This document shows positions 30,183 to 55,460 of a stretch of 64,000 bases of DNA, piece by piece. A program made the position numbers and the translations under genes. The notes under the pieces were generated by a model, which saw only the letters and a program-made list of their open reading frames with translations, did no database searches and was not told the DNA's origin. Each line of letters starts with the position of its first letter. Position 1 is the stretch's first letter. The stretch lies in assembly GCF_016026235.1 (NCBI RefSeq), contig NZ_CP065613.1; one strand, written 5' to 3'. The stretch is from Escherichia coli. GTDB lineage: Bacteria; Pseudomonadota; Gammaproteobacteria; Enterobacterales; Enterobacteriaceae.

Positions 30183-30665
30183 ATGACGAAGAAAAAAGCA
30201 CATAAACCTGGTTCAGCGACCATCGCGCTTAACAAGCGCGCCCGTCACGAATACTTTATCGAAGAAGAGTTCGAAGCGGGACTTGCCCTGCAAGGCTGGG
30301 AGGTTAAATCCCTGCGCGCAGGAAAAGCCAATATCAGCGACAGCTACGTCCTTCTGCGTGACGGAGAGGCATTTCTGTTTGGCGCTAACATCACGCCAAT
30401 GGCCGTGGCCTCCACGCATGTGGTGTGCGACCCTACCCGTACCCGCAAGTTACTTCTCAACCAGCGCGAACTGGACTCATTGTACGGTCGCGTCAATCGA
30501 GAAGGCTATACCGTAGTGGCGCTCTCCCTGTACTGGAAAAATGCCTGGTGCAAAGTGAAAATCGGCGTCGCCAAAGGTAAGAAACAGCACGATAAACGTT
30601 CAGATATCAAAGAGCGCGAATGGCAGGTGGATAAAGCGCGTATCATGAAAAACGCCCACCGTTAA
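30183..30665 (+). CDS. smpB: SsrA-binding protein SmpB
   Basis: 160 aa [45 protein letters not shown]... Confidence 0.96.
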
Positions 30666-30879
30666 ACCTGTACTCCAATTATTGACCAGTTCCTCACCGC
30701 GCCTCCCTCTCCGGCGGCGCGAATGAACATCTTATTGGTTATCACATCCGACACAAATGTTGCCATTCCATTGCTTAATCGAATAAAAATCAGGCTACAT
30801 GGGTGCTAAATCTTTAACGATAACGCCATTGAGGCTGGTCATGGCGCTCATAAATCTGGTATACTTACCTTTACACATT

Positions 30880-31242
30880 GGGGCTGATTCTGGATTCGAC
30901 GGGATTTGCGAAACCCAAGGTGCATGCCGAGGGGCGGTTGGCCTCGTAAAAAGCCGCAAAAAATAGTCGCAAACGACGAAAACTACGCTTTAGCAGCTTA
31001 ATAACCTGCTTAGAGCCCTCTCTCCCTAGCCTCCGCTCTTAGGACGGGGATCAAGAGAGGTCAAACCCAAAAGAGATCGCGTGGAAGCCCTGCCTGGGGT
31101 TGAAGCGTTAAAACTTAATCAGGCTAGTTTGTTAGTGGCGTGTCCGTCCGCAGCTGGCAAGCGAATGTAAAGACTGACTAAGCATGTAGTACCGAGGACG
31201 TAGGAATTTCGGACGCGGGTTCAACTCCCGCCAGCTCCACCA
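30880..31242 (+). ncRNA. ssrA: tmRNA (SsrA), 363 nt
   Basis: Begins GGGGCTGATTCTGGATTCGACGGGATTTGCG, contains the tag-encoding segment GCAAACGACGAAAACTACGCTTTAGCAGCTTAA (ANDENYALAA) and ends with the tRNA-like GGTTCAACTCCCGCCAGCTCCACCA. Confidence 0.97.
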
Positions 31243-31445
31243 AAATTCTCCATCGGTGATTACCAGAGTCATCCGATGAAGTCCTAAGAGCCCGCACGGC
31301 GCAAGCCCTGCGGGCTTTTTTGTATCTGCAATTTGTCCCGCGAAGTCCGAAGAGAACTAATTAAATCCGAACCTTTTAGGCCCATTGATAGGCCCAACGA
31401 AAAGCTCTATTGTTTTCGTTGGGCCTAAACGCATGGAGACTCCCC

Positions 31446-32687
31446 ATGGCAAGAAAAACCAAGCCGTTAACCGATACGGAAATCAAAGCCGCCAAACCTA
31501 AAGATGCCGATTACCAGCTGTATGATGGTGACGGGCTTACTCTGTTAATCAAGTCCAGTGGTAGTAAGCTCTGGCAGTTCCGTTACTATCGACCTCTGAC
31601 AAAGCAGCGAACCAAGCAGAGCTTCGGTGCCTACCCTGCCGTCTCACTTTCTGATGCGCGTAAACTCAGAGCCGAATCTCGAGTTTTATTGGCAAAAGAT
31701 ATTGATCCTCAGGAACATCAGAAAGAACAGGTGAGGAATTCTCAAGAGGCCAAAACCAACACCTTCTTGTTAGTTGCCGAGCGTTGGTGGAATGTGAAGA
31801 AAGCCAGCGTGACAGAGGACTATGCCGACGATATCTGGCGCTCGCTTGAGAGAGATGTTTTTCCAGCAATCGGTGATATCAGTGTCACTGAGATTAAGGC
31901 TCATACTCTGGTTAAAGCAGTTCAGCCGGTTCAGGCTAGAGGTGCATTAGAAACTGTTCGCCGTCTTTGTCAGCGTATTAACGAAGTCATGATTTATGCG
32001 CAGAACACGGGCCTGATTGATGCGGTTCCCAGCGTAAATATCGGAAAAGCGTTCGAGAAGCCTCAGAAAAAGAACATGCCGAGCATCCGGCCTGATCAAC
32101 TGCCTCAACTGATGCAGACGATGCGAACAGCAAACATCAGCCAATCAACACGATGCCTGTTCATGTGGCAGCTTCTTACTATTACCCGTCCTGCCGAAGC
32201 CGCTGAAGCTCGATGGGATGAGATCGATTTTGAAGCTAAAGAATGGAAAATTCCTGCAGCTCGAATGAAGATGAACCGGGACCATACGGTTCCATTGTCT
32301 GATGGAGCTCTCGCTATTCTGGCAATGATGAAGTCACTCAGTGGTGGCCGAGAATTTATCTTTCCTAGTCGAATCAAACCAACCCAGCCGATGAATAGCC
32401 AAACAGTGAATGCAGCACTCAAACGTGCTGGATTGGGAGGCGTTCTCGTTTCTCATGGCTTGCGTTCTATCGCCAGTACCGCCCTTAATGAACAAGGCTT
32501 CCCACCTGATGTTATTGAAGCGGCGCTGGCTCATGTGGACAAAAATGAAGTACGTCGCGCTTACAATCGCAGCGATTATCTTGAGCAGAGACGCCCGATG
32601 ATGCAGTGGTGGGCAAACCTTATAAAAGCGGCAGATAGTATTCCTACCGTTTGTAACGAAGTAGCAGGTCTTAGATTGGTTGGGTAG
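31446..32687 (+). CDS. intA: P4/CP4-57-type tyrosine integrase (site-specific recombinase)
   Basis: ORF 31410..32687; start taken at MARKTKPLTDTEIKAAKPKDADYQLYDGDGL (413 aa); sits directly 3' of ssrA, the classic attachment site of CP4-57-like elements; C-terminal HGLRS and Y-containing catalytic region. Confidence 0.9.
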   Translation: MARKTKPLTDTEIKAAKPKDADYQLYDGDGLTLLIKSSGSKLWQFRYYRPLTKQRTKQSFGAYPAVSLSDARKLRAESRVLLAKDIDPQEHQKEQVRNSQEAKTNTFLLVAERWWNVKKASVTEDYADDIWRSLERDVFPAIGDISVTEIKAHTLVKAVQPVQARGALETVRRLCQRINEVMIYAQNTGLIDAVPSVNIGKAFEKPQKKNMPSIRPDQLPQLMQTMRTANISQSTRCLFMWQLLTITRPAEAAEARWDEIDFEAKEWKIPAARMKMNRDHTVPLSDGALAILAMMKSLSGGREFIFPSRIKPTQPMNSQTVNAALKRAGLGGVLVSHGLRSIASTALNEQGFPPDVIEAALAHVDKNEVRRAYNRSDYLEQRRPMMQWWANLIKAADSIPTVCNEVAGLRLVG

Positions 32688-32698
32688 TGGATTTAAAA

Positions 32699-32750
32699 TC
32701 TCAAGTGATTATCCTTAGAAAAGATAATCACTTGAGATAATTGAAATTTT
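32699..32750 (+). terminator. hairpin terminator after the integrase gene
   Basis: Perfect inverted repeat TCTCAAGTGATTATC-cttagaaaa-GATAATCACTTGAGA followed by AATTTTTATT. Confidence 0.7.
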
Positions 32751-33162
32751 TATTGGATTAAGGCAAAACCATGCTACATTAATTAAGATAGTTTAAAATA
32801 GCATTTATATAGATATATGTTACACTTTCTAAAAAAAATCGCGAAAAAGGAAATATGATAACAATCATATTTTAGAAGTTGACATAATACATACCAAATT
32901 TATCGTGCTATGAACACTACATTAACCTTTTATTTTTTCATAACAAGCAAGCAAAAATGATGAATACAATAGAAATTCACCGCAAACAACCAAACATAAC
33001 TCTAGCCCAGCACATACAAAATAAAAGACTACAACTTGGAAAAGAAATCTCCAAAAAATACAAGATTTATCTCGACTTAAGGTTCTGGTTTTTTTTAGAG
33101 ATATTGAGCTTGGGAATAATAACGATCGAGACTTAATTAATCTCCTACAAAAAATAAAGTAC

Positions 33163-34032
33163 TTGGTTGATAATGGAAAGGTAGTTTGCCCTATATCTGC
33201 TACTGTTTTTTTAGAACTAATGAAACAGAACGATATCGAAACAAGGATGGCCACAGCCAAAATTATTGATCATCTGAGTTTTGGAGTTACACTTATAGCT
33301 AGTCATGAGAGAGTCAAACAAGAATTATGTAATGCTACGTATTCGATTTTGGGAGCTAAGGACAGCATTCCAATTGATCAATTAGTATGGACCAAACTAA
33401 GTTATATTTTCGGCGATTACCATCCATACGATACATCTTTCGATGCAGCTGAAGAACTGATCATTCAGAAATCTTTTTTTGATCATATGTGGGATATTTC
33501 ACTCGTTGAAATGATGAACCATATCAACTATGAAAGCTGGGAACAATTTGATTGGCAGAAAACAACAGAAATGCTTAACTTGGCTAATAAAGAGCATACC
33601 AATGAGCTTAGAAGCTATCAACACGCATATCGTATTGAGTTCGACGGAGTGTTAAGCCTTTTCAACGAGCAATTAATCCAGATATTCAAAGAGGCTTACA
33701 AGGCCGGATATAACAATGATGAAATTAATAATAAGAAAAAATCAAAAAATGAAAAACTTAAACAATTTGCACAATTAGTCCGTACTTTACATATTGGTGC
33801 CTCTTGTCATGCTGCAGTAAGATGGGATCAGAAACGCCAGCTCAATGGTAATGATCTTTTAGATTTTCATCATGCCGAAGCAGCTTTAGGATATTGTGAT
33901 TTATTTTTGACTGAAAAACCTTTGAAAGTTCTAGTGAGTCAAGAACATTTGGGATTAAGAGAATTATTCTCATGCTCTGTTGAGTCATCAGCTAGTGAAG
34001 GGCTCAAGATACTTAACATGTGTAAAATATAA
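33163..34032 (+). CDS. hypothetical protein, AT-rich island cargo (no family recognised)
   Basis: 289 aa ORF (TTG start in the track; the true start may be an internal ATG); low GC; convergent with the 565 aa gene. Confidence 0.55.
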   Translation: MVDNGKVVCPISATVFLELMKQNDIETRMATAKIIDHLSFGVTLIASHERVKQELCNATYSILGAKDSIPIDQLVWTKLSYIFGDYHPYDTSFDAAEELIIQKSFFDHMWDISLVEMMNHINYESWEQFDWQKTTEMLNLANKEHTNELRSYQHAYRIEFDGVLSLFNEQLIQIFKEAYKAGYNNDEINNKKKSKNEKLKQFAQLVRTLHIGASCHAAVRWDQKRQLNGNDLLDFHHAEAALGYCDLFLTEKPLKVLVSQEHLGLRELFSCSVESSASEGLKILNMCKI

Positions 34033-34068
34033 AAATTAAGAATATTTCATATTACTAAATCTATAAAC

Positions 34069-34100
34069 TTTAGAGGTCATTTTCATAATTGAAGCTGACC
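34069..34100. terminator. hairpin between convergent island genes
   Basis: AGAGGTCA-ttttcataattgaagc-TGACCTCT inverted repeat. Confidence 0.5.
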
Positions 34101-34185
34101 TCTCACCCGCTCGATAAGTCTCACACAACTATGACTAAGATTGGCAAGTATTATCCCCCCCAATTATCATCTATTACAAAAATAG

Positions 34186-35883
34186 CTAATCATCTATTTT
34201 AAAATCAAAAATCCTTAAAATATCATTAAATGATGCTTCACATTGCCCCACAAGGCTAGTGAAGTGTGCACGTAGATTTTCATGATCGGTACGCGCTTCT
34301 AATATCGCTTTCTTCTTTTTTTCTGTAGAAGCATGTCCGCGTACTTCGGTTCGTAGAGCATGCAGTTTTTGCATAGGCTGAACTAACATTTTCGCTTCAT
34401 CTACTGTTGCACTTTTAGCAATAAGAGCTTCTTGTAGTATGCGCAAGGATCCCCATTTGGGTTCAATGATTCGGCCCTCATATTTAGCAATTTCACTCAG
34501 TGGCTTTGGTAAAAAGCCCTCAACTAAATACTGATCAAGCGCAAGGATTTCATCACCCCACTCTTTGATTGAATCTGTTGCAGGATACTGAACAGCGCCA
34601 CTCAATACTGTACCCCGTGGCTTCCACCAGGTGGGAGGATTCTTGTCCATTAGCGAAATTTTGTGTTTGAGTGCCAACAATGGTTCATTGGACAGATACC
34701 ATTCCCCAACAATATCCGTCTGAAATGCACGCTTAGAAATTGTTCCTTTTGGCCATTCATTGAAGGCTTGCCAATAGAGCTGTTCTTCATAAGGTAAATG
34801 AGCCAAATCACCAATGTATACATGAACTTGCCCGGCCTCATTAATATCATAGGATTTTAAATACCAAGCATTTCGACAAGCAATACTTCTTTCATCTAAA
34901 GTATATTTTTCTGGATCCGCCTTGAAACGATGTAACACTTCTGCTCTAAAAAAGGCAGGTGAAACTTCCCACGGTAATTTATTTTCTTGAAAATAGTTAG
35001 ATAGTGAGTCTGGTCCGCAAGATGTTTCAACATTGCAGCTATTTTTACGATCGTATATTTTAAAGGTTGCGTATTTCCTTTTAGATGGATTATCTTCATC
35101 CTTCCATGCTTTTACCAGACCGCGCACAGTTACTTGAGGGCGAATGATCATTACACCATTACAGTAACTGGCTTCCCCGTTAATACCACCATGATAAAAA
35201 AGACTCCCTTCATCTTTAGTATATCTGTTGATATTCCCCCAGCCAGCAAAATTACCCCATCTGACACGTGTAAAATCAAACTTTAAAACAAGACATGTTT
35301 TGGATAAAGCCATGAATGTATCTAAATCCTTTCTCTTAATAGTAACTATATCCAGATAGTTAAAAGGAGGTGAAATATTTTTGTTAATTATCCTGATTAC
35401 ATCTTCAATATCACCCCGTTCATCGAGACGACAATATGCATTTCTTTCTGGCAAGTAATATAACCCAAGGCTGTGCACAAGTTTCTGACTTAATTCGATA
35501 GGTGCACGGCCTTCTTCAACGCCATGAAACCTACGACGATAAATTAATGCCTCTCCCCCTTTGAACACCCCATCTAAAGGTGGCTCAAGATAAATACGAT
35601 GTCCTTGACCTCCACCCCATGACTTTTGAATCTTCCAACAATACTCAACATCCATACGCATATTCTGCAATGCCCATCTATCTGCTGTAGTAACATTTTT
35701 CTCTAGAGCTAGCGCGCCATGAATTAGGACACTATTTCCAATCGCGTAGATAACCACTTCATCATTTTGAGCATTTTCTTTCAGAAATTTAATTGACCTT
35801 TCAGCCTCTATTAACCAAGCGGCATCATCATTCTGTGGCTTTTCCGAAATAGCATGAAGCTCTGTGAATTTAAATTGGCTCAT
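34186..35883 (-). CDS. hypothetical protein, 565 aa (island cargo; no family recognised)
   Basis: Long uninterrupted ORF starting MSQFKFTELHAISEKPQNDDAAWLIEAERS...; AAGGA upstream of the ATG; lies directly downstream of the STAND operon. Confidence 0.7.
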   Translation of the reverse strand: MSQFKFTELHAISEKPQNDDAAWLIEAERSIKFLKENAQNDEVVIYAIGNSVLIHGALALEKNVTTADRWALQNMRMDVEYCWKIQKSWGGGQGHRIYLEPPLDGVFKGGEALIYRRRFHGVEEGRAPIELSQKLVHSLGLYYLPERNAYCRLDERGDIEDVIRIINKNISPPFNYLDIVTIKRKDLDTFMALSKTCLVLKFDFTRVRWGNFAGWGNINRYTKDEGSLFYHGGINGEASYCNGVMIIRPQVTVRGLVKAWKDEDNPSKRKYATFKIYDRKNSCNVETSCGPDSLSNYFQENKLPWEVSPAFFRAEVLHRFKADPEKYTLDERSIACRNAWYLKSYDINEAGQVHVYIGDLAHLPYEEQLYWQAFNEWPKGTISKRAFQTDIVGEWYLSNEPLLALKHKISLMDKNPPTWWKPRGTVLSGAVQYPATDSIKEWGDEILALDQYLVEGFLPKPLSEIAKYEGRIIEPKWGSLRILQEALIAKSATVDEAKMLVQPMQKLHALRTEVRGHASTEKKKKAILEARTDHENLRAHFTSLVGQCEASFNDILRIFDFKIDD

Positions 35884-35927
35884 GAGTAATATTCATATCC
35901 TTTTACTTTATCTATAACTGACATCAC

Positions 35928-35976
35928 TTATAAGTTATAAGTTATAAGTTATAAGTTATAAGTTATAAGTTATAAG
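35928..35976. repeat. perfect tandem heptanucleotide repeat (TTATAAG)x7
   Basis: 7 exact head-to-tail copies read directly from the sequence, in the 120-bp gap between the stop of the 482 aa gene and the start of the 565 aa gene. Confidence 0.95.
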
Positions 35977-36002
35977 TTCCCCTTATGAATTAAGAAATAA
36001 CA

Positions 36003-37451
36003 TCAAACAAATACCACCCCTCTCGTAATTTTTTCACTGAATCTGCCATAACTTCCATTACGATGGAATCTACGTACTTGCCAAGAGTAAAATGAGCGCA
36101 ATGACCCGGTATTTGTTATGTTTCTCTCGCGATATGTAGTGCCTCGCGATATGAGGGCTGTCCCACAATTACCTTGAATTTGCCCTAGCCTAGCTGGCCC
36201 CCATCCAGCATTCCAATAATAAAGCTCTGCGACGACTAGGTCCTTTAACTTAACCTGTAGACGCCCATCATGCGGGATGACTTCAAGAGAATTTTCTATG
36301 CCTGGCATCGTCGGTAAAAATAACCGGGATGGATACAAATCATGTTGTAGGTATCCTATCCGACCAAAATCGAGCATTCCCGCCAATGGCCAAGCCATAC
36401 AAGTTTTATTCACCAGTTGTTCAAAAGTTGGTGGAGTTATTAAGGTTGTTGTACTGAGTGGATCCGGAGCTTGGCTGGAAAGCATTTGTTCACGTGTCCA
36501 GAACGATTCAATATGGGATGTCAACGAGTCCGCTCCTTCCTTATCACTGCTTACAGTTTGTGACCACCGAACAATCGACAACTCTACGCACTGTTCCATT
36601 GACATTGAAATGGGCGAGCTAAATGCAATTAGCTCGTCTCCTGGGTTTGCCGCCTCTACTTGAGCAAAGAAAGTTCGCAATGAAGCCTCGATCGCCTTAC
36701 TATCACTTTTGAATTCAGTCGATACTGAGAGCCATTCGGGACGATAAGGTCGAAGAAAAGCCAAAGTTGGATGGATAGGCAACGCCAAGAGAGAATGTTG
36801 CTCGGTCAACTCCATTGGTATCCTCCAGATGTGTCTAGCCACAGCTAACGTGCGAAGATAAGCGGAAATTACGCGAAGGGCTGTTCGAGAGGAAAAATGA
36901 GGGGCAAAGCCCTCTCCCAAGGGCCGAATGAAATATCCTGCATCCCCTTGGTACGGTGCATTTGGATATGCCGTCCGGTTTTTTGTCCATTCGAAGGCCA
37001 TTTGTCGAATAAATGGACAGCGGGTAAAAGTTTCCAACTTGCTAATGGTTATATGGAAGATTCTTGGCAAATCCGTACCTTGAACACTATCAAAGTCATC
37101 GGGAATGATGAAGTCTTCTGGAGCTAGTTCCAAATCAGTATTCATGAGCAGAATCGATAACCCAAAATCTTTCATCAACAATGATGAAAGTGGTGAGGGT
37201 AGAAGAATATTCTCTGCCAACAAAGTCGTAGGAAAGTAGTTAAACTCTTTAATTGCCATCCAGAAAATACATAATACTTCGACAACCTCGGCTTCAAGTT
37301 TGCGCGAGCGCAGCAATTGAAGCAGCAATGATTCGGTTTCAGCTTTCGTCTCAGGCTCTCCCAGTCGAGCGGCAAGCTCCTGGATAGTCCACCACCGAGC
37401 AGACGTAGCAGGCCATCCAAGACGGGCAATAAGAATGCGAAGATCGTTCAT
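36003..37451 (-). CDS. hypothetical protein, about 482 aa, third gene of the STAND operon
   Basis: ORF 36003..37496; start more likely the ATG at 37451 (MNDLRILIARLGWPATSARWW...) because it overlaps the stop of the upstream gene as ATGA. Confidence 0.7.
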   Translation of the reverse strand: MNDLRILIARLGWPATSARWWTIQELAARLGEPETKAETESLLLQLLRSRKLEAEVVEVLCIFWMAIKEFNYFPTTLLAENILLPSPLSSLLMKDFGLSILLMNTDLELAPEDFIIPDDFDSVQGTDLPRIFHITISKLETFTRCPFIRQMAFEWTKNRTAYPNAPYQGDAGYFIRPLGEGFAPHFSSRTALRVISAYLRTLAVARHIWRIPMELTEQHSLLALPIHPTLAFLRPYRPEWLSVSTEFKSDSKAIEASLRTFFAQVEAANPGDELIAFSSPISMSMEQCVELSIVRWSQTVSSDKEGADSLTSHIESFWTREQMLSSQAPDPLSTTTLITPPTFEQLVNKTCMAWPLAGMLDFGRIGYLQHDLYPSRLFLPTMPGIENSLEVIPHDGRLQVKLKDLVVAELYYWNAGWGPARLGQIQGNCGTALISRGTTYRERNITNTGSLRSFYSWQVRRFHRNGSYGRFSEKITRGVVFV

Positions 37452-40400
37452 TTCACTTCCTGGGCGATTGGCTCGAGCAGTTTTGACATCCAGCAAGGTG
37501 GTTCTAAGGGCAAGGTCCGAGTATCCTCAATCACACAATTAACCATCGTCTCTGTGAACTTTACAGCTTCATCAATGCGATTTTGCTTAACGTAGAAATA
37601 GACCATAACTTCCGATGGAGCTAGGCGTGACGACACTGGCTCATCAAACATGTTGTAGGTTGTTACGGCCACAAATTCATCACAGCGCTGCGGATAATTT
37701 TGGACAACCAGGTCGAGTCTTTTGCAAGTCACATCCACGTTCTCCATGTAACCAATCCATCCCCCATTACGGATCTGTGCATGAACAAGATACTTCCAAG
37801 CTGCAGTTAAGCCACTTAATCTACGTTTTGTTTGAAATGCAAACTCGGAAAGATGTAGAGCTTCCCTCATCCATTTGTTGTTTTTTGCAAATAAAATCTT
37901 ATCCAGTTCGACGAGTAAATTTCGCCCCTGCTTTTGGCTTTCCCAGTGCTGATACCAAGTACGGAGAAGTTTTGGACGCTCTTTGTAATATGGTTCCAGA
38001 ACTTTGAGCAAGTCTTCCAATTGTTCAGGTCTAAAGACCGTCACATCACCTTCATAAGGTTTATTGTCAGCGTCACTACTTGAATTTTCGTGGCGTTGTA
38101 AACAACCAATATCCCATCCATTATGCTCTTCAAGAATGCGAAGCCGCTCGGAAGCAGTTGTACAACCATCCTCTACAAGTTGTTGAAGTGTATCCCGAAT
38201 TTCGGGATGAAGGCCTGTGCGCATTAGAGCATCCAGAGGCCACTCTTCAATGATTCCCTGTTTGATGTAGGCCTGCATACTGCTCTCGGCCAAAGCCCAG
38301 TCACCCACACATGTATGCTCTTCAAATTTTATTACCAATGCGGAAGGCTTCAGCTTTGCCAGTAGCCGATCTGCTTCAGCAAGAACATGTCTCGTACCCT
38401 TACCATCGGTGTAATCCAAAACATGGTGTATTTGCGGCGCAATTTTAGCCAGTAACCGACAAGCTTCTTTCGGCACTACATCAACTAAATAAGCGATGGC
38501 ATCAACCGTATTACTCAGTGTCGGATCTTTACGATGTCCGTATCCAGTGGTCAATTCCCACGTCTGCGTGCAAAGCTCACGAGCCTCCGAATTCAGTTGA
38601 TGGGAGATCGCTATCGCACAGAGTTGTAATGGTATTTGAAGATGTACACTGGTCTCATTTTGAATGTCTGCATCAAGTAACAAACGTTGAGCGCCAATGA
38701 ATGTTATAGCCGCTTCGTCGGCCATTCTGATCAATGAACCAGATGCGTACTGAGTGCGGAATGACGCACTATCGAACCAAGCGCATTGCAACGCAGCATC
38801 AATAGTCGATTGGGAAAGTACCACAGCACTAGTTCCCGAAAGCAGAACACTACCAATATATATATCGCAAGCAATACGGTGTAGTGCCGCTTGAAAGTCC
38901 GCCGTTGCCGATTTTCTAAAATAACTTTGTCTAAATCGCCGCGATTCAACAGGCTCGAGTAATTCATACAGCTCATGGAAGTTGATGAATTCCCCACACC
39001 ACCATCGTTGGGCTATTTGTGCACCAATTCCGGACAGTACATTGAGATAATCAGTAATATCTTCTCTATCTTCGTACATAGGGGCTTTGATGTGCTCGAA
39101 GTTTGTTTGCCCTTCTGCAATCATACAAAGATTCAGATGTACGGCACCAAACAGCCAGTGGTGCGTGAGAGTTGCCAAATTATCTTTGTGTTTGTAATAG
39201 CTGTCGCTTATCCAGTTCACCGGGATTGGTTGGCTCGAAGGAGTTGAGGTTTTGATTAACGCGACCTCTATTGCAGCCACAAATGGAGTTCTGACAAGTT
39301 CGTCGAAGTCCTCTCGCTCGGTCACTACTACCCCTGCAACCGCAGCCGCTCGTATACAAGCATCGCTAATTATGTTCTTTTTCTGTCCATCGGGTAGAGA
39401 AGCTGCTAGCAACATTAAATCATCCAAATTACCTTTTTGAATCAGCATTTGAACGCGAGGTAACCATATGTCCGGGCTATTTTTGTCGACTAACCAAGCG
39501 AGATTTTCAGATGTATCAGCGATAACGCCAAGCTGTGTAAATGCACTGGCCAGAAACAAGAGTTCATCAGAACCAGCCCTTGAATTATATTTATTGGAAA
39601 ATTGGCATAGGGCTCTGAACCGATGAAAGGCTTCTTCACCGCAAATTTCTGCCTGAATAATATCCCCTCGAGACAGTAAGGCCAGACCAAGTGCAACAAC
39701 GTGTAAAATATCCGTTTCATGCCTAGAGGCTATAGACTCACGTATCACACTTTCCTCTGAGGTTAGTGTCAATGTAAAAGATATGAGCCTAGCCAGATCG
39801 CTATCCTGCATCTGAAATTGACTTCCATCAACCATACGAGCTTTCAGATGCGCCAACCGGTAGGCATCTGAAAAATTTGCAGTTTCAAGCGCAGCGCTCA
39901 GGGCTTCTGACAATAATATCTCAAATAAAGCTTCTGAATATCCTTCTTTTAAGCGACTCATGATCCAGTCACGAGTTAAACCTGTAATGAGATTGTTGGG
40001 GTTACCAAGCTTCGCTTGAACTGTCCATAACCAGTTCACTCGTAGTGAAGTAGGTGCCTGATGTTCAAGCCAGTCTGCAATAACAGGCATTAATTCATTG
40101 ATTCGACTCTCATAGTCATCAGTTGCACGTACGAAAACAGCCAAACTTTCATGGAAGACTTTAAGACCAGCCACAGACGAATGGAGCAAATGCTCTACTT
40201 TATCCACATCTGGTTCCACCGCCTTAATTTTGGTAGCAATCTCTGAGAAGGCTGTCTTAGGCCAGAAAAAAGTAAAGGCACAGATAAGCCTTAGCGTATC
40301 CTTTTGGCTTGGAGCAAGACGTTCCCATAGAGATGCATAGTAAAATCGGGCGTCTTGGCTCAAGTCTCCCTTCAACTGCTCAATATCCCAACTGGATAGT

Positions 40401-41875
40401 CTGCGACCCGAATGTTTCAATTCTGATGTAGCATAAATAACGTGAAGAGGATGGCCATTAGTTTTCTTACGAAGAGCGGATGCTGCACTCTGCAGTTGTT
40501 CTTCAATTTGTTCTTCACTTTCAAAACCAGTTGTAAGCCAGCCTTCTTGAACTGTTCTACGTAGATAAGAAAGTACTGCACTCTCAGACATTGCAGGCAA
40601 TGTATGCCACTCAGATTTTGGTGCAAAGGCGAGCAAATCCGCTGGCAACTGTTCGTCATTTACCGGTTGAGTGCCGACGAGCAGTACCATATTTTCCGGG
40701 CAGGGAATTACCTGACAGAAAAGGTCATCTAGTGGTCGTTTATCCTCAGCGTTGATACGCCAGACATGATCCAAACCATCAAGAATGAGCACAAATGGCT
40801 TTCCCAGTACTTTGTAGTGGGCAGCACATGCCTCCAATTGTGTATGTAAGCCTCCACCAGTTTTCGGGACATCCTCGTGAAACTGTTGGATCTGCGCCAG
40901 AATGGATTGCTCGACAATGTAGCTATTAACCCGGTCGCGGCCTCGCTCGGTTGTCGACAGAAAATAGTGATGGCGAACCGTTGGGATACCTTTTTCTGCA
41001 AGCGTGTCGCACAGTGCGCTCAGGTAAGTACTCTTTCCGCGTCCTGGTGGACCAGTCAGCACAATTGCCTTTCCGGTAGCATTAATTGTGCTCTGGACAA
41101 ATTCTTGATGGAATATTTCATCAGGAACCTCATAACCTTCTGGAACAACAAAATCCTCTGGCAAAGGAGCTGGAGGTGAAGCTCGCAAGATGGTTCCAAC
41201 CTCTGCCAGTTTAATCCAGCCATCCGGCGCAGGGAGATTTTTTTGCGTTGCCCAATTCAGAGCCACATATTTTAGATTAGCGATTCCCTCTGGCGTACCA
41301 TGCAGTCGAAGGCGAGCATCAACTTCATGCTCCAATGCAAGATAGCCCTTATCGCTGTGTCGAATACATAATTGTCTGAAGAAAAGTTTGCATTCCTCAA
41401 CGCCGCCGAGTTCAACTTCTACCAAGGTGCGCTGAGGTTCTGGGATCTTAGAAGGATCAATCCGGTCTCGTTCCAGACAAACCTCAATAGCAGCATCTGG
41501 TCGGCGATTCGTTATGAGCGAAATTTCGCCAATACGCACTGGATCAAGTTGTTTGAAAGCATCGAACCATTTGCGTAGCATCGATCTCGACCGCTCTGTC
41601 TTGCCCGTTTTCTCCAGCATCCAATCCCAAGATAGAAGATGCGTCTCAGAATCTGGGGTGAACTTGATCTGCTGAAGGTCAACGAAGCCATCACTTCGTT
41701 CGATGACGATATCATCTAGTCCCTGTGGTGCTTCGTTTTCATTATCACATTCAAATTTCACGCGGCTATAGCGCGTCGGCGCATCAAGCCAATCGCACAG
41801 GACCTTAAGGCCCTGGCGATTTTGATAAATATAACCAGCTGCAGTGATGGCGGTTTTCTTAATATCTTCACTCAT
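37448..41875 (-). CDS. STAND-class P-loop NTPase (NACHT-like) with N-terminal nuclease-like domain and long C-terminal helical region; candidate anti-phage sensor/effector
   Basis: 1475 aa; Walker A VLTGPPGRGKST, Walker B FVLILDGLDHV (hhhhDGLD, NACHT-type); N-terminal ~250 aa contain ...GLDDIVIERSDGFVDLQQIKF (D...QxK, restriction-endonuclease-fold-like); C-terminal ~1000 aa helix-rich with no enzymatic motif. Confidence 0.8.
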   Translation of the reverse strand: MSEDIKKTAITAAGYIYQNRQGLKVLCDWLDAPTRYSRVKFECDNENEAPQGLDDIVIERSDGFVDLQQIKFTPDSETHLLSWDWMLEKTGKTERSRSMLRKWFDAFKQLDPVRIGEISLITNRRPDAAIEVCLERDRIDPSKIPEPQRTLVEVELGGVEECKLFFRQLCIRHSDKGYLALEHEVDARLRLHGTPEGIANLKYVALNWATQKNLPAPDGWIKLAEVGTILRASPPAPLPEDFVVPEGYEVPDEIFHQEFVQSTINATGKAIVLTGPPGRGKSTYLSALCDTLAEKGIPTVRHHYFLSTTERGRDRVNSYIVEQSILAQIQQFHEDVPKTGGGLHTQLEACAAHYKVLGKPFVLILDGLDHVWRINAEDKRPLDDLFCQVIPCPENMVLLVGTQPVNDEQLPADLLAFAPKSEWHTLPAMSESAVLSYLRRTVQEGWLTTGFESEEQIEEQLQSAASALRKKTNGHPLHVIYATSELKHSGRRLSSWDIEQLKGDLSQDARFYYASLWERLAPSQKDTLRLICAFTFFWPKTAFSEIATKIKAVEPDVDKVEHLLHSSVAGLKVFHESLAVFVRATDDYESRINELMPVIADWLEHQAPTSLRVNWLWTVQAKLGNPNNLITGLTRDWIMSRLKEGYSEALFEILLSEALSAALETANFSDAYRLAHLKARMVDGSQFQMQDSDLARLISFTLTLTSEESVIRESIASRHETDILHVVALGLALLSRGDIIQAEICGEEAFHRFRALCQFSNKYNSRAGSDELLFLASAFTQLGVIADTSENLAWLVDKNSPDIWLPRVQMLIQKGNLDDLMLLAASLPDGQKKNIISDACIRAAAVAGVVVTEREDFDELVRTPFVAAIEVALIKTSTPSSQPIPVNWISDSYYKHKDNLATLTHHWLFGAVHLNLCMIAEGQTNFEHIKAPMYEDREDITDYLNVLSGIGAQIAQRWWCGEFINFHELYELLEPVESRRFRQSYFRKSATADFQAALHRIACDIYIGSVLLSGTSAVVLSQSTIDAALQCAWFDSASFRTQYASGSLIRMADEAAITFIGAQRLLLDADIQNETSVHLQIPLQLCAIAISHQLNSEARELCTQTWELTTGYGHRKDPTLSNTVDAIAYLVDVVPKEACRLLAKIAPQIHHVLDYTDGKGTRHVLAEADRLLAKLKPSALVIKFEEHTCVGDWALAESSMQAYIKQGIIEEWPLDALMRTGLHPEIRDTLQQLVEDGCTTASERLRILEEHNGWDIGCLQRHENSSSDADNKPYEGDVTVFRPEQLEDLLKVLEPYYKERPKLLRTWYQHWESQKQGRNLLVELDKILFAKNNKWMREALHLSEFAFQTKRRLSGLTAAWKYLVHAQIRNGGWIGYMENVDVTCKRLDLVVQNYPQRCDEFVAVTTYNMFDEPVSSRLAPSEVMVYFYVKQNRIDEAVKFTETMVNCVIEDTRTLPLEPPCWMSKLLEPIAQEVK

Positions 41876-41879
41876 AGCA

Positions 41880-44800
41880 TCAAGGTATGTTTAGTTCGGT
41901 TTTGATCCAAGTGTCCAAAGTGTCTACACGTACAAACTGGGTCGGAACAGGATATGGCGGATGAACCATCCAGTAGTACACATCGCGGCTTACATAGAGT
42001 TCAATATTCCTTAAAGGAACACTCTCTGGCTGTGGCCACTGGAGCAGTTCAAGCAACCTTGAACGGTGAGTTTCGAGAAATTTTCTGCGGTCTAAAATAC
42101 GACTGAATTGTCCTGCCCTGTCATTCTCTGCCTTGCCAAATATCCGATCACGAAGACGACGGCTATCTTTCATTGTAAATGGCGGCTGGTTGTACTTACA
42201 CTCTACTGTCACGAGCAAATTGCTTTCCGGCCAGTATGCAAAAACATCGAAATCACCAACGTCATCAAACTTCTCTTCCCGGAATCTTCTAAAGAAATCA
42301 ATACCTCGCTGAACATAAGGTGTATGCCTGCGGAATATTTCCTCTGTACGAAGCTCGAGACGCTTTTCAATACTCTCCTTAACCTCGCGAATGACTGGCT
42401 TAACATGAGGCCAATCAAATTCCGCAGGCAAATAACCGTCTCGTACCGCCGACATCCAAATGTACATTGCCCGGCTTGCCGACTCTGCCCCCCAACGCAA
42501 ATCGGCACCATCAATTACCAGCGGCTTGATAGTGTATCGATCGATTCGCTTATTCCGCTCCCAATATGGAATATCTCCTTCATCGATATCCCTTCCAACG
42601 AGCCTACGAACTCCTACTTCCGAAAGAGTCAGAAAAGCAACAATCTTTTGGGCCTCAGAATAGTCAAGCCTATCAATGCTATCAGCCAACCCTCGCGCAA
42701 GGCGATCAGGTGCTGCAGCATAAGACAAGGAAAGTTCGTTCCCGAATCCATATCGTTGAGCTTGCGATAACACAGCGAGAACAGTGAGCATATTCTGAAG
42801 CTCGAACCCCAAATCGGTGATAAAAGCTTTTTTGAGTTTCTCTGAAGCCAGCAACCCCTCTGGCTCTCCTTCCACCGCATCCTTGTCATTTGTGCCAAGC
42901 CCCAACCTGGACTTCGCATACTCCTTTGCAAAGGTAGCCTCACGATCACCAAAATCTGTCGAATAGAAAACTTCTGGAATATATGAGTCGTCGATCTCAA
43001 CACCACCCACATCTATACCATTGTGAAGGGTATCACTGGCACCAGTCAGCACCATGAACCAATCAACCAAGCCAACTAATTCTCGTAGTACATCCTCTGT
43101 AACTCTATCTACACCATTTGAAGATAAATTGACGGTCTTCTCTAGTAGATATCGATAATGGCGGGCCTTATCACCGAATTCTTTGCGTGCATGTTCTATC
43201 GCATCAAGTCTGTCATACTCAACTTCATGAGCAAGACTCAAACGGGCTCGTTGGATTCTAGTCCTCTCAGTAACAAGGAGGGCATCGTGTTGCTCGATGA
43301 ATGCCTGCAGAAGCTGATGCCTATCAAATGCTGCAAGTCGATTCTCAATGTGAAGACGCATGCGAGCACTGGAAGGATCAATCCTGGCCTTGGCATCTGA
43401 CAGTTCATACCTGCCAGGAATAAACCCAAGCCCCATGATTTCTGCGGCCAGTTTTCTACGGGCAAGCTTGTAATCGGTAGGCGAAGGAATTATAGGGTAT
43501 ACATAGTCGGGGACATCAATATTACGGGTCATGACTTTTAAATGATAACGAGCCGCTTGCGACGCTATATGAGTAAATCGTTGAGCAAATTCATCAGGCA
43601 TCTGCAAACCAAGTACTGCATGACATTTTTCGAGCGTTTCCAGTAAGCAACGAACCTCGAATGATCCATCCTTGGAAAGATTTAATCCAGCAAGCACTGC
43701 ACGTGTATCAACTTGAACGTGAAATACATCGGGGTTGTGGGAATCCGGGATGACTGAAGTCACCACGTGTTTAAATTCGTCTAAAGAAGAAGGACTCTCT
43801 TCAGCTTTAACCAGACTAGATGGTTCAGGGGAGCACGTAAACAAAACATGCGGCTGCCTAAATAGAGAAATATCAGACATCATTTTTCTGCAGCGATAGC
43901 TACAGTCGGCCAGAAGTTGGGCAAAAAGGTCTATCAGACGTCCATCTTCAAAGCGTAATTCTTTGGTTATTTCTATTAATGTTTGAACGGTACAGGAACC
44001 AATCGATGTTGAGTATGCCATCGCTTTGTGATGACGCGATTCAAGTCGAACGACACCTTCAGTTGAAGAACTCAACGTCCATCCGATAGAGCTGTCTGGA
44101 AATACCTTGGGTGCACGAGACCAGAATTCTGTCAATATCTTGAAGCGCCAAGAAGTCCCCCAGTGAGGGTCTAGCCCAATGAAGTTAGGTGCAATCGCAC
44201 CTTCGACAAGCACACCATGCATGTCTTTGAATGATGCAAACAGGTCTACTGTTCCACGGGAAAATGGGCTGAGCGTCCCCTCTTGAGCATCTGTAAATTT
44301 CCAATAACTTTCTAATTCTTCCAGATCGTTGAGACTATCAAAAATCGTGATGAAATCCGCTAATGGAAACAAACGAGTTGGCTTTGAGGGGAGATTGATG
44401 GAATTAAACGCAGTACCCGCGAGTGTAACGACAATAACGATGTGAAGCTCATCGACGCTAGGTTCTGCACCAACTCTAGATAGAGAAAGGAAACGTCCAT
44501 CATCAAGACGGAAGAAAATCGGCGATCCACGACTCACCTTGGCGTATATGCTTTCCGCTGCGTTTGACAGGCGGTCATTAGATGTATGGTCACATGTGCA
44601 AATGAGATATATCCCAGAATTACCCAGTATAATACAACTGATAGGCAGGTCTTTGCAGGCGGTGCCGTCAACATACAGAGTCAAAGGCCCTATAAGGGTT
44701 CTTTGGAATCGCTCAGCGACAAACTCTGCAAGTTTCCTGTGCGTAGAGGGGCTAATCCCGTTCAGATTTTTGTTAGCCCAATGGTCAATAATGAGACCCG

Positions 44801-45662
44801 GTGCACTGCGTACTGACATTGGTATCCATACCCTATCCATCTCGACAGCAAGGAAAGGTAGCGCCATGCCTTGCATCACTGCATTTCCGAACGCATCCGG
44901 TTTCAGCGGTGCTTTGAAAGTGCCAACACGAGTATCGAACGTACACCCTGCTTTCTTTCGGCGGTTCGCTAGCTCATTGCCAAGTTGTTGAAGCAAAGAC
45001 TTGCAAGTCAACCAGAAGTCTTCAGTAGCTAGTTCAACATCAGCACATTGGGCCTCGGTGTTGACAGAGAGCATCAACTCAGGAATCGATTCGATGATCT
45101 GCGCTTGCAGCGCAATGGCAAGATCCATATGGGCTTGTGCTTCTGGAATATGAGCATAGGTAATGCGAAATGCTTCTACGAAGTCAGACATTCTCTCAAT
45201 GCAACTCCCGTAGAACATAGGGACGAAGTCTTGACCAAGCCGTACTTTGATTTGCCCCCAATCAGCCTCGGGGGAAAAATCCTCAAGCATTGGGAATTCA
45301 GGCCATGATGCGTATAATTCTTTTGTAAATACTTTAAAATCTACATAGCTATCAATCGATATACCTACCTGAGACTCAAATGGCAGCTCTAAAAGGACAC
45401 ACCAAGCAAAAATATGCTTTATGGGGCTACCTGTATTGGCTGGCCAGAGTTCGGAAGTAAATAATGCAACTGCTACGTCGAGGGTTTTGTATCGGCGAAA
45501 TAAATTCTGGGTGGCTTCCAGATGCTTACAAAAGTATGTGTCTTCACCTACCCCATTCGTAAACAATTCACGATATCTGGACATATCGTGTATCAAAGAA
45601 TCATAATCAACCTTTTGCTCTGTTAGTTTTCTTTCCCGCTTTTCACGTGACTTCCTACCCAC
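41880..45662 (-). CDS. large protein (1260 aa) with C-terminal PD-(D/E)xK-like nuclease motif; first gene of the STAND operon
   Basis: GTG start preceded by GGGAGGA Shine-Dalgarno; no Walker A found on reading; C-terminus has GDFDVFAYWPESNLLVTVECKY (D-x15-ExK); stop lies 4 nt before the start of the STAND gene. Confidence 0.75.
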   Translation of the reverse strand: MGRKSREKRERKLTEQKVDYDSLIHDMSRYRELFTNGVGEDTYFCKHLEATQNLFRRYKTLDVAVALFTSELWPANTGSPIKHIFAWCVLLELPFESQVGISIDSYVDFKVFTKELYASWPEFPMLEDFSPEADWGQIKVRLGQDFVPMFYGSCIERMSDFVEAFRITYAHIPEAQAHMDLAIALQAQIIESIPELMLSVNTEAQCADVELATEDFWLTCKSLLQQLGNELANRRKKAGCTFDTRVGTFKAPLKPDAFGNAVMQGMALPFLAVEMDRVWIPMSVRSAPGLIIDHWANKNLNGISPSTHRKLAEFVAERFQRTLIGPLTLYVDGTACKDLPISCIILGNSGIYLICTCDHTSNDRLSNAAESIYAKVSRGSPIFFRLDDGRFLSLSRVGAEPSVDELHIVIVVTLAGTAFNSINLPSKPTRLFPLADFITIFDSLNDLEELESYWKFTDAQEGTLSPFSRGTVDLFASFKDMHGVLVEGAIAPNFIGLDPHWGTSWRFKILTEFWSRAPKVFPDSSIGWTLSSSTEGVVRLESRHHKAMAYSTSIGSCTVQTLIEITKELRFEDGRLIDLFAQLLADCSYRCRKMMSDISLFRQPHVLFTCSPEPSSLVKAEESPSSLDEFKHVVTSVIPDSHNPDVFHVQVDTRAVLAGLNLSKDGSFEVRCLLETLEKCHAVLGLQMPDEFAQRFTHIASQAARYHLKVMTRNIDVPDYVYPIIPSPTDYKLARRKLAAEIMGLGFIPGRYELSDAKARIDPSSARMRLHIENRLAAFDRHQLLQAFIEQHDALLVTERTRIQRARLSLAHEVEYDRLDAIEHARKEFGDKARHYRYLLEKTVNLSSNGVDRVTEDVLRELVGLVDWFMVLTGASDTLHNGIDVGGVEIDDSYIPEVFYSTDFGDREATFAKEYAKSRLGLGTNDKDAVEGEPEGLLASEKLKKAFITDLGFELQNMLTVLAVLSQAQRYGFGNELSLSYAAAPDRLARGLADSIDRLDYSEAQKIVAFLTLSEVGVRRLVGRDIDEGDIPYWERNKRIDRYTIKPLVIDGADLRWGAESASRAMYIWMSAVRDGYLPAEFDWPHVKPVIREVKESIEKRLELRTEEIFRRHTPYVQRGIDFFRRFREEKFDDVGDFDVFAYWPESNLLVTVECKYNQPPFTMKDSRRLRDRIFGKAENDRAGQFSRILDRRKFLETHRSRLLELLQWPQPESVPLRNIELYVSRDVYYWMVHPPYPVPTQFVRVDTLDTWIKTELNIP

Positions 45663-45959
45663 TTCATATCCTCCCTGTATGCATACGTTGACAGTCTATA
45701 CGGTATCGAAGCATAGAAATTATTAATGCGTATCATAATGAATATCTTGAGTCACTTACTGTACCGCCCTCACAAAAGTGCATAGCCTCAAACTATCAAA
45801 CACATCCGACAAATTGTTACATTTATATTATTGCAACCATAAAACCCAATAATTTGATAAATAATAAATTTTTCTTATTTCAACTAGTCACACTTCAGAT
45901 TGGTTTACATAACTTTAGCGCAAATCACTGTTTGCCAATAATCACTTCTTCAAAAGCGG

Positions 45960-46195
45960 CTTTCACATTTTCATCCTCCGCTATCCGCCCTGATCAGTTA
46001 CCACAGCTAATGCAGACAATGCGAAATGCCAACATTATTTTGCCTACTCGATGCTTGTTCATGTGGCAACTTCTAACTATCTCACGACCCGCAGAAGCGG
46101 CAGAAGCTCGTTGGGATGAGATCGATTTTGAAGCTAAAGAATGGAAAATTCCTGCAGCTCGAATGAAGATGAACCGGGACCATACGGTTCCGCTA
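45960..46195 (+). pseudogene. truncated second copy of a P4-type integrase (internal fragment only)
   Basis: Encodes ...IRPDQLPQLMQTMRNANIILPTRCLFMWQLLTISRPAEAAEARWDEIDFEAKEWKIPAARMKMNRDHTVPL, matching residues ~215-285 of the intact integrase at 31446..32687; 80 bp (46112..46191) are identical to 32214..32293; no N- or C-terminal part present. Confidence 0.85.
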
Positions 46196-46622
46196 GGTTC
46201 GCGAGGCCTGAGCTTGGCGCAGCTATCGCCAGCAGAATCACCGCTGATGCAAGTGGCGCAGGCGCAGTTAAAGCATCTGTTACCCGCACATCTGATGGCT
46301 TCATTTTCGCCGTTTTTTAGTCAAGCGGGACACACTTCCTAGCCACAGCAAACGGGCGCTGAGAGAGTGGGAATGGCCGCAGAAGGTGCGGGTGGTCGCG
46401 GCCAGTCAGCCGCTCCTACCACCGGTGATCCAGGAAGGCATGTTTGACGCGGTCAGTGAAGCGCTTTACCAAGACCCTTGGCTGAACATTGATTACCGCA
46501 ATGCTCAAGATACTCGCCGTCAGGCGGAGGTGATGCCCCTTGGTTTTAGTCCTACAGGGCTCACGTCTGCAAAGCTAATGGGAAGAGTGTGGTACTCACT
46601 CTCTCCCATATAATCTTCCAAA

Positions 46623-46850
46623 CTATGGCGAAACAGGCGTTAGCGGTTTTTTTACTTTGCTCAAAATCCAGGCATCAATCTCGGATTCTAGCCACCCCAC
46701 CGTCTTTGCTCCCAGTTTCACCCTTTGGGGAAATGTCGGATCATGACGATCAGAACTAGGGTCAAGCCAGTCGTATACCATTGAACGCCCAATGCCTAAC
46801 TTCTTGACAAGTGCAGGTACACGAAGGATTTTTACAGACTTTGGTTCCAT
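46623..46850 (-). CDS. alpA: AlpA-family prophage transcriptional regulator (HTH)
   Basis: 75 aa MEPKSVKILRVPALVKKLGIGRSMVYDWLDPSSDRHDPTFPQRVKLGAKTVGWLESEIDAWI, the AlpA pattern. Confidence 0.8.
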   Translation of the reverse strand: MEPKSVKILRVPALVKKLGIGRSMVYDWLDPSSDRHDPTFPQRVKLGAKTVGWLESEIDAWILSKVKKPLTPVSP

Positions 46851-46964
46851 TAAAGAGCTTCCTCTCTTGGTTTGCTTAGGATGGAAGTCAGACTATCTAC
46901 TGATGCAACTGTGCGACATACGGCTGCAGTACTTCATTTTTTACGGAGCTTAACTGATTGAATA

Positions 46965-47687
46965 ATGGATAATTTTAGTTTTAACGATTTTATCGTTGAT
47001 TTGAAAACTATGTTCAATAATAAGAGCGCAAGCTTGTCCAATAGACTCATGGCGGCTGACCGGGAGCAGGAAAAGGTTATTTCAGATGCAAATGAATATC
47101 ATGAGTTTGTACTATCGCTGGTTGAAAGCATGCTTACGAACCCGGTAGTACGCCGTAGGTTTGATGATCAAGTCTACAGAATGTCATTTGATGAACCAGA
47201 CACGGTTAGCGAAACTATAAGTGAGCTTGTTTTCCTGGCTGATGTTAACTGGCAGCTAGGGCTTGGGCTTCTGAATACGAATAAAAATGAAGCGATAAAG
47301 TGCCTACTCTTAGCTATTGAATACCTTGATTACTGTCGTGGTCTTGAAGATCAAGAATTATGGCAACAGCAACAGACCACAAAATTAGATGTTCCGGCGC
47401 AGAGGGGTAGAAGTAAAGCTGCTCGCTTTGATCCCATTAAAGCCAAAATTATCAGGCTTTTGCAGGAAGCTTGCCCCTCAGACGGATGGGATACTAAATC
47501 AGAAGCTTTGAAGAGCATAGAGAATGGGATTAATGAACTGAAATGGCCATCTGCACGTGATCAGAACAATCTGCCCAAAACCGGAGCTGAAATATTTGCA
47601 ATGAAGATACGCCAGGTTGAGGTCTGGTCAAGTCAGGATCAGAAAATTAAAGCTGCATTTGATAGTGTCGTAAAGCCTAAAAAATAG
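46965..47687 (+). CDS. hypothetical prophage protein, 240 aa
   Basis: Clean ORF MDNFSFNDFIVDLKTMFNNKSASLSNRLMAADREQEK...; no family recognised. Confidence 0.6.
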   Translation: MDNFSFNDFIVDLKTMFNNKSASLSNRLMAADREQEKVISDANEYHEFVLSLVESMLTNPVVRRRFDDQVYRMSFDEPDTVSETISELVFLADVNWQLGLGLLNTNKNEAIKCLLLAIEYLDYCRGLEDQELWQQQQTTKLDVPAQRGRSKAARFDPIKAKIIRLLQEACPSDGWDTKSEALKSIENGINELKWPSARDQNNLPKTGAEIFAMKIRQVEVWSSQDQKIKAAFDSVVKPKK

Positions 47688-47757
47688 ATGTACTTGAGGT
47701 CTAATATGCTGGCAGTTTAAGCCTTAAAAGCCAAACTGCCATCTCACAACGCGCATG

Positions 47758-48342: not shown

Positions 48343-48406
48343 GTTAATACCTGAATAAATAATTAATATTGAGGTGAGTAAGAATAAATAACCATACAAT
48401 TAACCA

Positions 48407-55102: not shown

Positions 55103-55460
55103 ACGCTTAAATACAGAGCAGACTTAAGGAAAGCAAAATGCTAATCTCACAGACGAAGAGACTCCTGCTGTAACCTCCCCTCCCTGCAAAATACCTGACA
55201 TTTTCTTTTAGGACCAACAATGGGACCAAAATGAAAATTGAACTGAAGGTTATCAGCCATTAAACAACAAGTTACAAACCCAATTCAGACTCCGCCAGCC
55301 AATCATGATTGGACGGTGTAAGGACAACACCAACAAAAACAGGAAGTTAGCAGTCTCAGCAGGACACCGACCAGACGGTGAGGAGACAAAAAAGATACGC
55401 AAAGGAGCCGCGGCTCCTGGCGACATGAAAGCCCACAGATGTGGGCTTTTTCGTTGATGG

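Follow-up and report, generated by a model that had tools for sequence, protein, structure and literature searches.

How did a second, incomplete integrase sequence come to lie almost 14 kb away from the intact integrase gene of an island at the ssrA gene of Escherichia coli, and do the two sequences delimit, or even mobilise, the cargo between them? The question arises from a stretch of 64,000 nucleotides of the E. coli chromosome around smpB and ssrA (NZ_CP065613.1; hereafter the window, in which position 1 is the first base). An earlier note, drawn up from the sequence alone, had described here an 80-bp identity between the intact integrase gene, intA, and an integrase fragment further downstream. 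Our analysis showed that this fragment is the dead internal remnant of a second IntA-type tyrosine recombinase gene in direct orientation, an ordinary scar of island turnover that requires no new mechanism. Most likely, it was left, together with the relic of a yafY-like regulator gene beside it, at the alpA end of the variable cargo slot after a tandem or flank-anchored acquisition followed by deletions, a reading to which we assign a probability of about 0.55. The features that carry it are the following.

30880-31242, strand +: ssrA gene, encoding the transfer-messenger RNA (tmRNA; ARAGORN); its 3' end is the left attachment site (attL) of the island, whose specific sequence begins right past 31242.
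31446-32687, strand +: intact integrase gene intA, 413 amino acids (aa) (Pfam PF13356, PF22022 and PF00589; NCBIfam PRK09692).
32214-32293, strand +: first copy of the 80-bp repeat, within intA, coding for ...WDEIDFEAKEWKIPAARMKMNRDHTVP (repeat search, base-by-base comparison).
45980-46195, strand +: integrase fragment of 213 bases, residues 213-291 (tblastn, Pfam profile positions 3-77 of 172, annotated pseudogene, allele comparison).
46112-46191, strand +: second copy of the 80-bp repeat (repeat search, base-by-base comparison).
46196-46569, strand +: relic of a YafY-like WYL-domain regulator gene, both ends missing and frameshifted (DNA identity to contig L032; protein relatives).

With intact IntA as query, tblastn against the 64 kb returned one further integrase piece (45980-46216, residues 213-291, 85% identity, E = 7e-41), which settles that the fragment is related to integrase genes. 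A repeat search of the window yielded a direct repeat of 209 nt at 32085-32293 and 45983-46191 (85% identity, 13,898 bp apart), within which base-by-base comparison identified the exact run of 80 bp (32214-32293 and 46112-46191). Upstream of this run 97 of 129 bp match between the copies (75%), and three of the four bases just past it are mismatched. The Pfam model Phage_integrase (PF00589) matches the fragment at profile positions 3-77 of 172 only: the complete catalytic domain is absent, with the C-terminal HxxR and tyrosine region missing, and neither the N-terminal arm-DNA-binding nor the central core-binding domain is present. The intact gene has all three, namely PF13356 (arm-binding), PF22022 (core-binding) and PF00589 at positions 3-170 of 172 (catalytic), and matches NCBIfam PRK09692 over its full length (1-413, E = 1e-270). 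Upstream of 45980 lies the AT-rich upstream region of an operon, without integrase similarity; at the other end, integrase similarity stops at 46195 for every allele tried. An open reading frame (ORF; 45854-46342) spans the fragment. In strain PK8568, the Prokaryotic Genome Annotation Pipeline (PGAP) annotates the same piece as an integrase pseudogene missing both ends; the fragment had thus already been flagged as a pseudogene, in an island of known kind. The observation of the earlier note, a second, internal-only integrase fragment with 80 bp identical to intA and diverged sequence upstream of them, is borne out by these independent comparisons. Recurrence of the identity in an independent assembly had been set beforehand as a check, and both copies are present in the complete genomes L001 (strain PK8568) and L002 and in one metagenome contig of the Joint Genome Institute (JGI). 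Coverage of the 18-kb region reaches 80% or more in only 10 of 5,426 complete E. coli genomes, in which the repeat copies recur; three further complete genomes represent deletion derivatives of the region mediated by insertion sequences (IS).

The two integrase sequences differ in descent. In its 5' 129 bp, the fragment shows 30-33 differences to the resident intA and to the alleles of K-12, CFSAN061762, KFu015 and Yersinia, and just 16-18 to those of L006 and L007, the latter adjoining an smpB gene only 74% identical to that of E. coli. Because this part is nearer to L006 and L007 than to the resident gene, allele comparison assigns the fragment to a different allele lineage and argues that it is not a decayed duplicate of intA. 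The 80-bp block reverses the pattern, with no difference to the resident gene, 3-5 to other E. coli alleles, 7 to Yersinia and 6-11 to L007 and L006. At the same place, the fragment shares exact runs of 53 bp with K-12, 48 bp with CFSAN061762 and 45 bp with KFu015, from which it differs at 3-5 of 80 positions in the block and at 31-33 of 129 upstream. E. coli alleles are 82-88% mutually identical in this half of the gene, and for four of the six pairs the longest exact runs there reach 46-54 bp. These values suggest that the 80-bp identity largely reflects conservation of a stretch that codes for the catalytic core and is the most conserved of the gene; by itself, it is not a recombination scar. 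Possibly, the block was also homogenised by a short gene-conversion patch. A single site is unique to both window copies (A at 46132/32234, where the cassette sister lineage has T), and a mosaic test on informative sites gave Fisher p values from 7e-6 to 0.7, depending on the comparator. The naive expectation of 0.75^80 for the identity block was discarded, as the block is conserved in all sampled alleles (0-11 of 80 differences from the fragment). Two other candidates were rejected as well: a look-alike 5' truncation of the L006 integrase is a coincidence caused by an IS3-family insertion, and short integrase 'homologues' (P0002-P0040), considered as a conserved truncated form, turned out to be assorted pseudogene pieces.

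Directly behind the fragment lies the second relic. Positions 46196-46569 are 86.4% identical in DNA to positions 399-767 of the JGI contig L032, which keeps the N-terminal part of the gene upstream, in another reading frame; this part, with the helix-turn-helix (HTH) region, is absent from the relic in the window. Its protein relatives P0061 and P0062 share 73-75% identity with it; P0062 bears PF13280 and is named YafY by its source. The WYL match on the relic itself is sub-threshold (E = 0.036; 14.5 bits against a cut-off of 21.8), yet its homology to these genes is clear. The GC content rises to ~0.535 in 46200-46799. Integrase similarity ends at 46195 and yafY similarity starts at 46195/46196, which places the fusion point between 46195 and 46196, and the relic ends at 46569, precisely where the conserved backbone of the island begins. 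The resulting order of integrase, cargo gene and alpA is the left-end order of an island of this subfamily. A relationship of 46196-46569 to YfjR of K-12 or to the WYL gene of L006 was rejected for lack of any similarity; the relic matches another YafY-like gene.

The borders of the cargo slot can be drawn from the ssrA islands of Yersinia (L021-L023) and Citrobacter sp. Ce006 (L018-L020), which we reached via close relatives of the YfjH-like protein and whose architecture is identical to that of the window. The gene order of this subfamily is int, cargo slot, alpA(-), yfjH(+), gp2(-), yfjI(-), GTPase ... cbtA, attR (the right attachment site). In the window, slot and adjoining backbone contain the following features.

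32640-45978: cargo proper, five genes and an upstream region (ORFs; missing from the K-12, CFSAN061762, Citrobacter and Yersinia islands).
33163-34032, strand +: orphan gene 1 (ORF).
34186-35883, strand -: orphan gene 2, 565 aa (ORF).
36003-37496, strand -: operon gene, 497 aa (ORF).
37448-41875, strand -: gene for a NACHT/STAND protein, 1,475 aa (Pfam NACHT; PADLOC).
41880-45662, strand -: operon gene, 1,260 aa (ORF).
45663-45978: upstream region of the STAND operon (sequence).
46571-48428: start of the conserved backbone (identity to Citrobacter L018 and Yersinia L021; protein comparison; Pfam).
46623-46850, strand -: alpA-like gene (protein comparison with AlpA).
46965-47687, strand +: yfjH-like gene (protein comparison with YfjH).
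47758-48399, strand -: gp2/yfjJ-like gene (Pfam).

The similarity of the Yersinia DNA to the window stops at 32614, which provides the left border, the Citrobacter locus not extending to its integrase; the last ~50 bp of intA vary among alleles. In both islands, similarity resumes at 46571, 52 bp past the alpA stop codon, and continues to 48428 at 86-89% (Citrobacter L018 88.8%, Yersinia L021 86.1%). Because of these two limits, the comparison places the variable slot at ~32615/32640 to 46570 and the fragment inside it, at its alpA end and not at its border. The earlier note had equated the cargo with the ~13.8 kb between the two integrase copies. Cargo indeed differs among related islands at this point, but the copies do not delimit it, as the slot extends to 46570 and holds both the fragment and the yafY-like relic. 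The comparison defines the slot borders for this subfamily, namely the 3' end of intA and a point 52 bp past the stop codon of alpA, which helps to delimit both orphan genes and the uncharacterised STAND operon as cargo; it also shows that the edges gather what earlier occupants left behind, in this case pieces of an integrase and of a WYL regulator.

Slot contents differ throughout the compared islands. Where the window carries the STAND operon, the Yersinia islands carry DUF2326/MC7/HNH genes, those of Citrobacter a KAP NTPase, a reverse transcriptase and a caspase-like protein, CP4-57 of K-12 abpAB and rnlAB, and CFSAN061762 Qat and a helicase. Unlike the window, the Yersinia and Citrobacter islands have neither an integrase nor a yafY relic at the alpA edge of the slot, and K-12 lacks a second integrase fragment. 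In CP4-57 and CFSAN061762 the order is int(+), yfjH(-), alpA(+), whereas alpA and yfjH are inverted in the window and follow the cargo slot. An inversion of 32.7-47.7 kb was considered for this difference and ruled out, as the same native order is found in Yersinia and Citrobacter.

The structure is long-standing and stable, because both junctions, operon to fragment (~45980) and fragment to yafY (46195), also occur in a lineage that has diverged by 1.7% (L025-L031) and in which an IS is inserted after 46227. The exact ORF of the fragment (P0015) is found in 252 blocks of the protein collection, with the STAND operon to its left and alpA to its right in 10 of the 10 places shown. Between the two lineages the fragment has diverged by 2.8%, like the adjacent non-coding DNA, compared with 1.1% for the adjacent coding DNA, and two of its six substitutions change an amino acid, a pattern that fits neutral decay.

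How did the two relics come to lie at the alpA end of the slot? In the history that we favour, a resident island with its own integrase and a yafY-regulated cargo would have been in place first. A segment with intA, the two orphan genes and the STAND operon would then have been placed on the ssrA side of this island. Its route there would have been tandem site-specific integration or, with the same product, a recombination event that used the shared smpB-ssrA flank as its anchor and was closed by an illegitimate join on the right. The internal att site, any backbone of the first element and the first 212 codons of the old integrase would have been lost by deletion, and a further deletion would have fused codon 291 to the interior of the yafY-like gene. 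A course of tandem integration with later deletions is plausible and the most economical one, because relatives show tandem or decayed integrases, the relics keep the expected order and orientation, and the route is documented: tandem accretion followed by deletion and decay is known from island evolution (PMC3146451, PMC7563491). Among the relatives, L010 carries an integrase directly after cbtA and attR (20061-20282), Yersinia L021 an attR copy with an N-terminal integrase fragment of 176 aa behind it (19511-20257), and L034, directly before the island, the C-terminal end of a P4-alpha-like protein plus a hybrid att (1-1000). As in tandem composites, the integrase sequences of the window, one intact and one a remnant, differ in origin and share their orientation (+). 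A shared attachment site, decaying integrases and internal deletions likewise characterise ICESt1 and ICESt3 with their cis-mobilisable elements (CIMEs) and the ssrA islands of Dehalococcoides (PMC3146451, PMC7563491), and for E. coli elements with defence genes, the tmRNA locus is known as a busy hotspot (PMC10121019).

Several points weigh against this history. A search for a second ssrA 3' end or a copy of the left end of the island in 31.4-55.2 kb (up to 3 mismatches; blastn-short) gave no hit, and the window has a single set of backbone genes (alpA, yfjH, gp2, yfjI ... cbtA) with no trace of a first element. It therefore lacks the internal att repeat and the second set of modules that define composites formed by tandem accretion, and shows a 213-bp integrase piece only; since there is neither an internal att remnant nor a first-element backbone, the tandem step is inferred only. 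The favoured history needs three or more separate illegitimate junctions; a relative that combines, on this backbone, an intact integrase of the fragment type with an intact yafY-like gene next to it was not found; and the evidence for gene conversion is thin (one unique site, a comparator-dependent mosaic test). Moreover, the relics may have arisen in a different host and have come in together with the complete variable segment. What the earlier note had proposed, modular replacement of cargo or tandem integration through recombination within integrase genes, therefore holds in part: the fragment of a different allele, the slot of variable cargo and the tandem elements of L010, L021 and L034 agree with replacement and tandem integration, but internal att sites are missing, there is one backbone, and recombination within the integrase genes was not borne out.

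The alternative that survives best, which we regard as possible but doubtful, is that the integrase and yafY remnants were made in another island or host and that homologous recombination in the int and alpA-yfjH sequences on either side brought them in with the whole segment 32640-46570. It would account for the different closest relatives of the two flanks, intA being 94-95% identical to E. coli alleles and the backbone 86-89% identical to Citrobacter and Yersinia, for the wholly different slot contents of islands with similar flanks, and for the fragment always travelling with the operon (the 252 blocks and the 1.7%-diverged lineage). However, it merely moves the formation of the scar elsewhere, where the same illegitimate events would be required, and no donor with the segment in another backbone was found.

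Other explanations invoke recombination across the 80-bp repeat, which bears on the suggestion of the earlier note that the repeat could allow deletion of the cargo. The predicted deletion product, intA up to 32293 joined to 46192 onward, was looked up by exact sequence and is present (P0064) in five metagenome contigs of the European Nucleotide Archive (ENA; L033-L037), in the order smpB, ssrA, hybrid integrase, alpA, yfjH ... cbtA. These contigs are identical to the window from the start of intA to 32293, with at most one mismatch, or three single-base gaps (L034), further upstream; after 46192 they show 1-5 differences, mostly polymorphisms shared with cassette carriers. The reciprocal junction, in which the 5' part of the fragment leads through the block into the 3' part of intA (P0094/P0095), occurs in eight contigs (L041-L047 among them) from other samples, one of which is a cassette contig of 13,911 bp that closes on itself (L041, ENA ERZ7982086 NODE_1171). 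All 13 recombinant contigs stem from short-read metagenome assemblies or assemblies across the Sequence Read Archive (Logan), and the SPAdes contigs that report coverage have 2.9-5.2x. No recombinant junction was found among the 5,426 complete genomes, no recombinant contig comes from isolate assemblies at NCBI, and a scan of JGI metagenomes with patterns matching all four junction types detected the two normal junctions only, in 2 contigs. A repeat of 80 bp that exceeds the k-mer of the assembler produces a loop in the assembly graph that yields both alternative paths. Because such a loop creates the same joins, the recombinant contigs are no evidence of natural deletion or circles, and both the contigs without cargo and the circular one most likely arose as artefacts of a graph loop. 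We therefore withdrew the cargo-less contigs as proof of natural deletion, given the reciprocal junction in other low-coverage short-read assemblies and the lack of either join in isolate and complete genomes. On the suggestion itself the findings point neither way: the exact predicted product exists, but only in low-coverage short-read assemblies, together with its reciprocal junction, and in no complete genome. The repeat could support a rare RecA-dependent loss of the 13.9-kb cassette. If deletion occurs, the C-terminal third of IntA is also lost, leaving an island without a working integrase. More generally, caution is warranted for short-read metagenome assemblies, in which an 80-bp repeat flanking a cassette gives 'deletion' and 'circular' contigs that look like biology.

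The joins seen in these contigs correspond to the substrates of a Campbell-type event, which we consider unlikely. Here, a 13.9-kb circle bearing codons 213-413 of an integrase together with both orphan genes and the STAND operon would cross once, within the 80-bp stretch, into a resident integrase gene that had been truncated at codon 291 and joined to the yafY relic beforehand; the event would rebuild an intact integrase and leave the fragment. This would account at once for where the two truncations lie and for the placement of the identity block, and both substrate forms exist as contigs, cargo-less (P0064, L033-L037) and as a closed cassette (P0094/P0095, L041-L047). However, the 3' part of intA should then share its allele with the 5' part of the fragment, whereas 32294-32614 is closer to E. 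coli alleles (0.84-0.88) than to L006 and L007 (0.70-0.84), and the switch in the similarity of intA to K-12 lies at ~32046 and not at the block. In addition, the cassette has no replication or transfer function recognisable with Pfam, PADLOC or NCBIfam, and its substrate contigs come from low-coverage short-read data only, as expected of a graph loop induced by the repeat.

A further reading, which we rate as very unlikely, would make intA and the fragment a cassette system based on homologous recombination: the 13.9-kb defence cassette would loop out as a circle via the conserved 80-bp core and re-enter any related ssrA-island integrase by a single crossover, without site-specific recombination. 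If so, the cargo-less and closed-cassette contigs would be real molecules, and cargo would move between islands. Highly improbable, too, is a functional role that keeps the fragment or the repeat in place; examples would be a programmed switch by which the defence cassette is looped out and back in, or a small protein acting as a modulator of the integrase. All carriers examined retain the exact 80-bp direct repeat, an ORF runs across the fragment, and both recombinant junctions occur in assemblies; against this, the HxxR and tyrosine portion of the active site is missing from the fragment, whose divergence between the lineages matches that of non-coding DNA; islands of identical architecture in Yersinia and Citrobacter do without the fragment, and the complete genomes contain no recombinant. 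Local duplication of the resident intA followed by decay, suggested by the direct orientation and the 80 identical bases, is effectively refuted by the allele comparison, as the upstream 129 bp are 25% off the resident gene and just 12-14% off the other-species alleles L006 and L007, and by an intA that is invariant in all carriers examined.

The element that carries the scar is an integrative island of the CP4-57 family at ssrA. Like CP4-57 of E. coli K-12 (intA, yfjH, alpA, yfjI, yfjJ ... yfjZ-ypjF), it is integrated at the 3' end of ssrA, with an integrase gene directly downstream of ssrA and an ssrA-derived repeat at the far end:

55284-55316, strand +: degenerate attR with a 4-bp deletion in its ssrA-derived core (homology to the attR of K-12).

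The window encodes homologues of AlpA (51%), YfjH (25%), YfjI, YfjJ, the GTPase, the DUF932 and antirestriction proteins, RadC and CbeA/CbtA of CP4-57, and this backbone was recognised by Pfam, PGAP, protein comparison and DNA similarity to K-12 and CFSAN061762. The level of identity to K-12 varies along the island: it is 94.6% in 30287-32639 (smpB-ssrA-intA), just 65-76% in the middle backbone, and 90% in the right arm, from 54424 onward through attR into ypjA. The attR core reads GCCAGCC----AATCATG, 4 bp short compared with K-12 and L033 (GCCAGCCCACCAATCATG); L040 has a 2-bp deletion. Judged from this core deletion, excision of the island may be impaired in this strain. Between the gp2-like and yfjI-like genes (48399-48430), ~590 bp of other carriers are missing in the window and in L016, and YfjI comprises 412 aa in the window compared with 485 aa elsewhere.

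A variable defence-type slot beside the integrase, as in the window, is also a feature of the E. coli tmRNA hotspot #9 and of the hotspots of P4-like satellites (PMC10121019, PMC9122126), the defence role of the operon in the window being putative. The element itself is no satellite of the P4 type: YfjI (DUF3987) and gp2-like genes are present, whereas P4 genes were not observed. In the cargo, the N-terminus of the NACHT protein matches PD-(D/E)xK / Cap4-like nuclease effector models and its NTPase region matches Avs1b (E = 4e-11), both in PADLOC. The 1,260-aa and 497-aa partners and both orphan genes have no family match in Pfam, NCBIfam or PADLOC. The three genes are possibly a candidate for an uncharacterised STAND defence operon.

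The bases shortly before the start of the 565-aa orphan gene, 35923-35978, form a tandem repeat with a unit of 7 bp, (ATAAGTT)n. The unit occurs 8 times in the window and 5 times in strain PK8568, and L041 has one copy less than the window; the repeat could represent a phase-variable promoter or leader. Outside the island, ~16931-17081 of the window, which we take to be the end of an IS1 element, is 95% identical to the end of contig L034, where it abuts the gp2-like gene.

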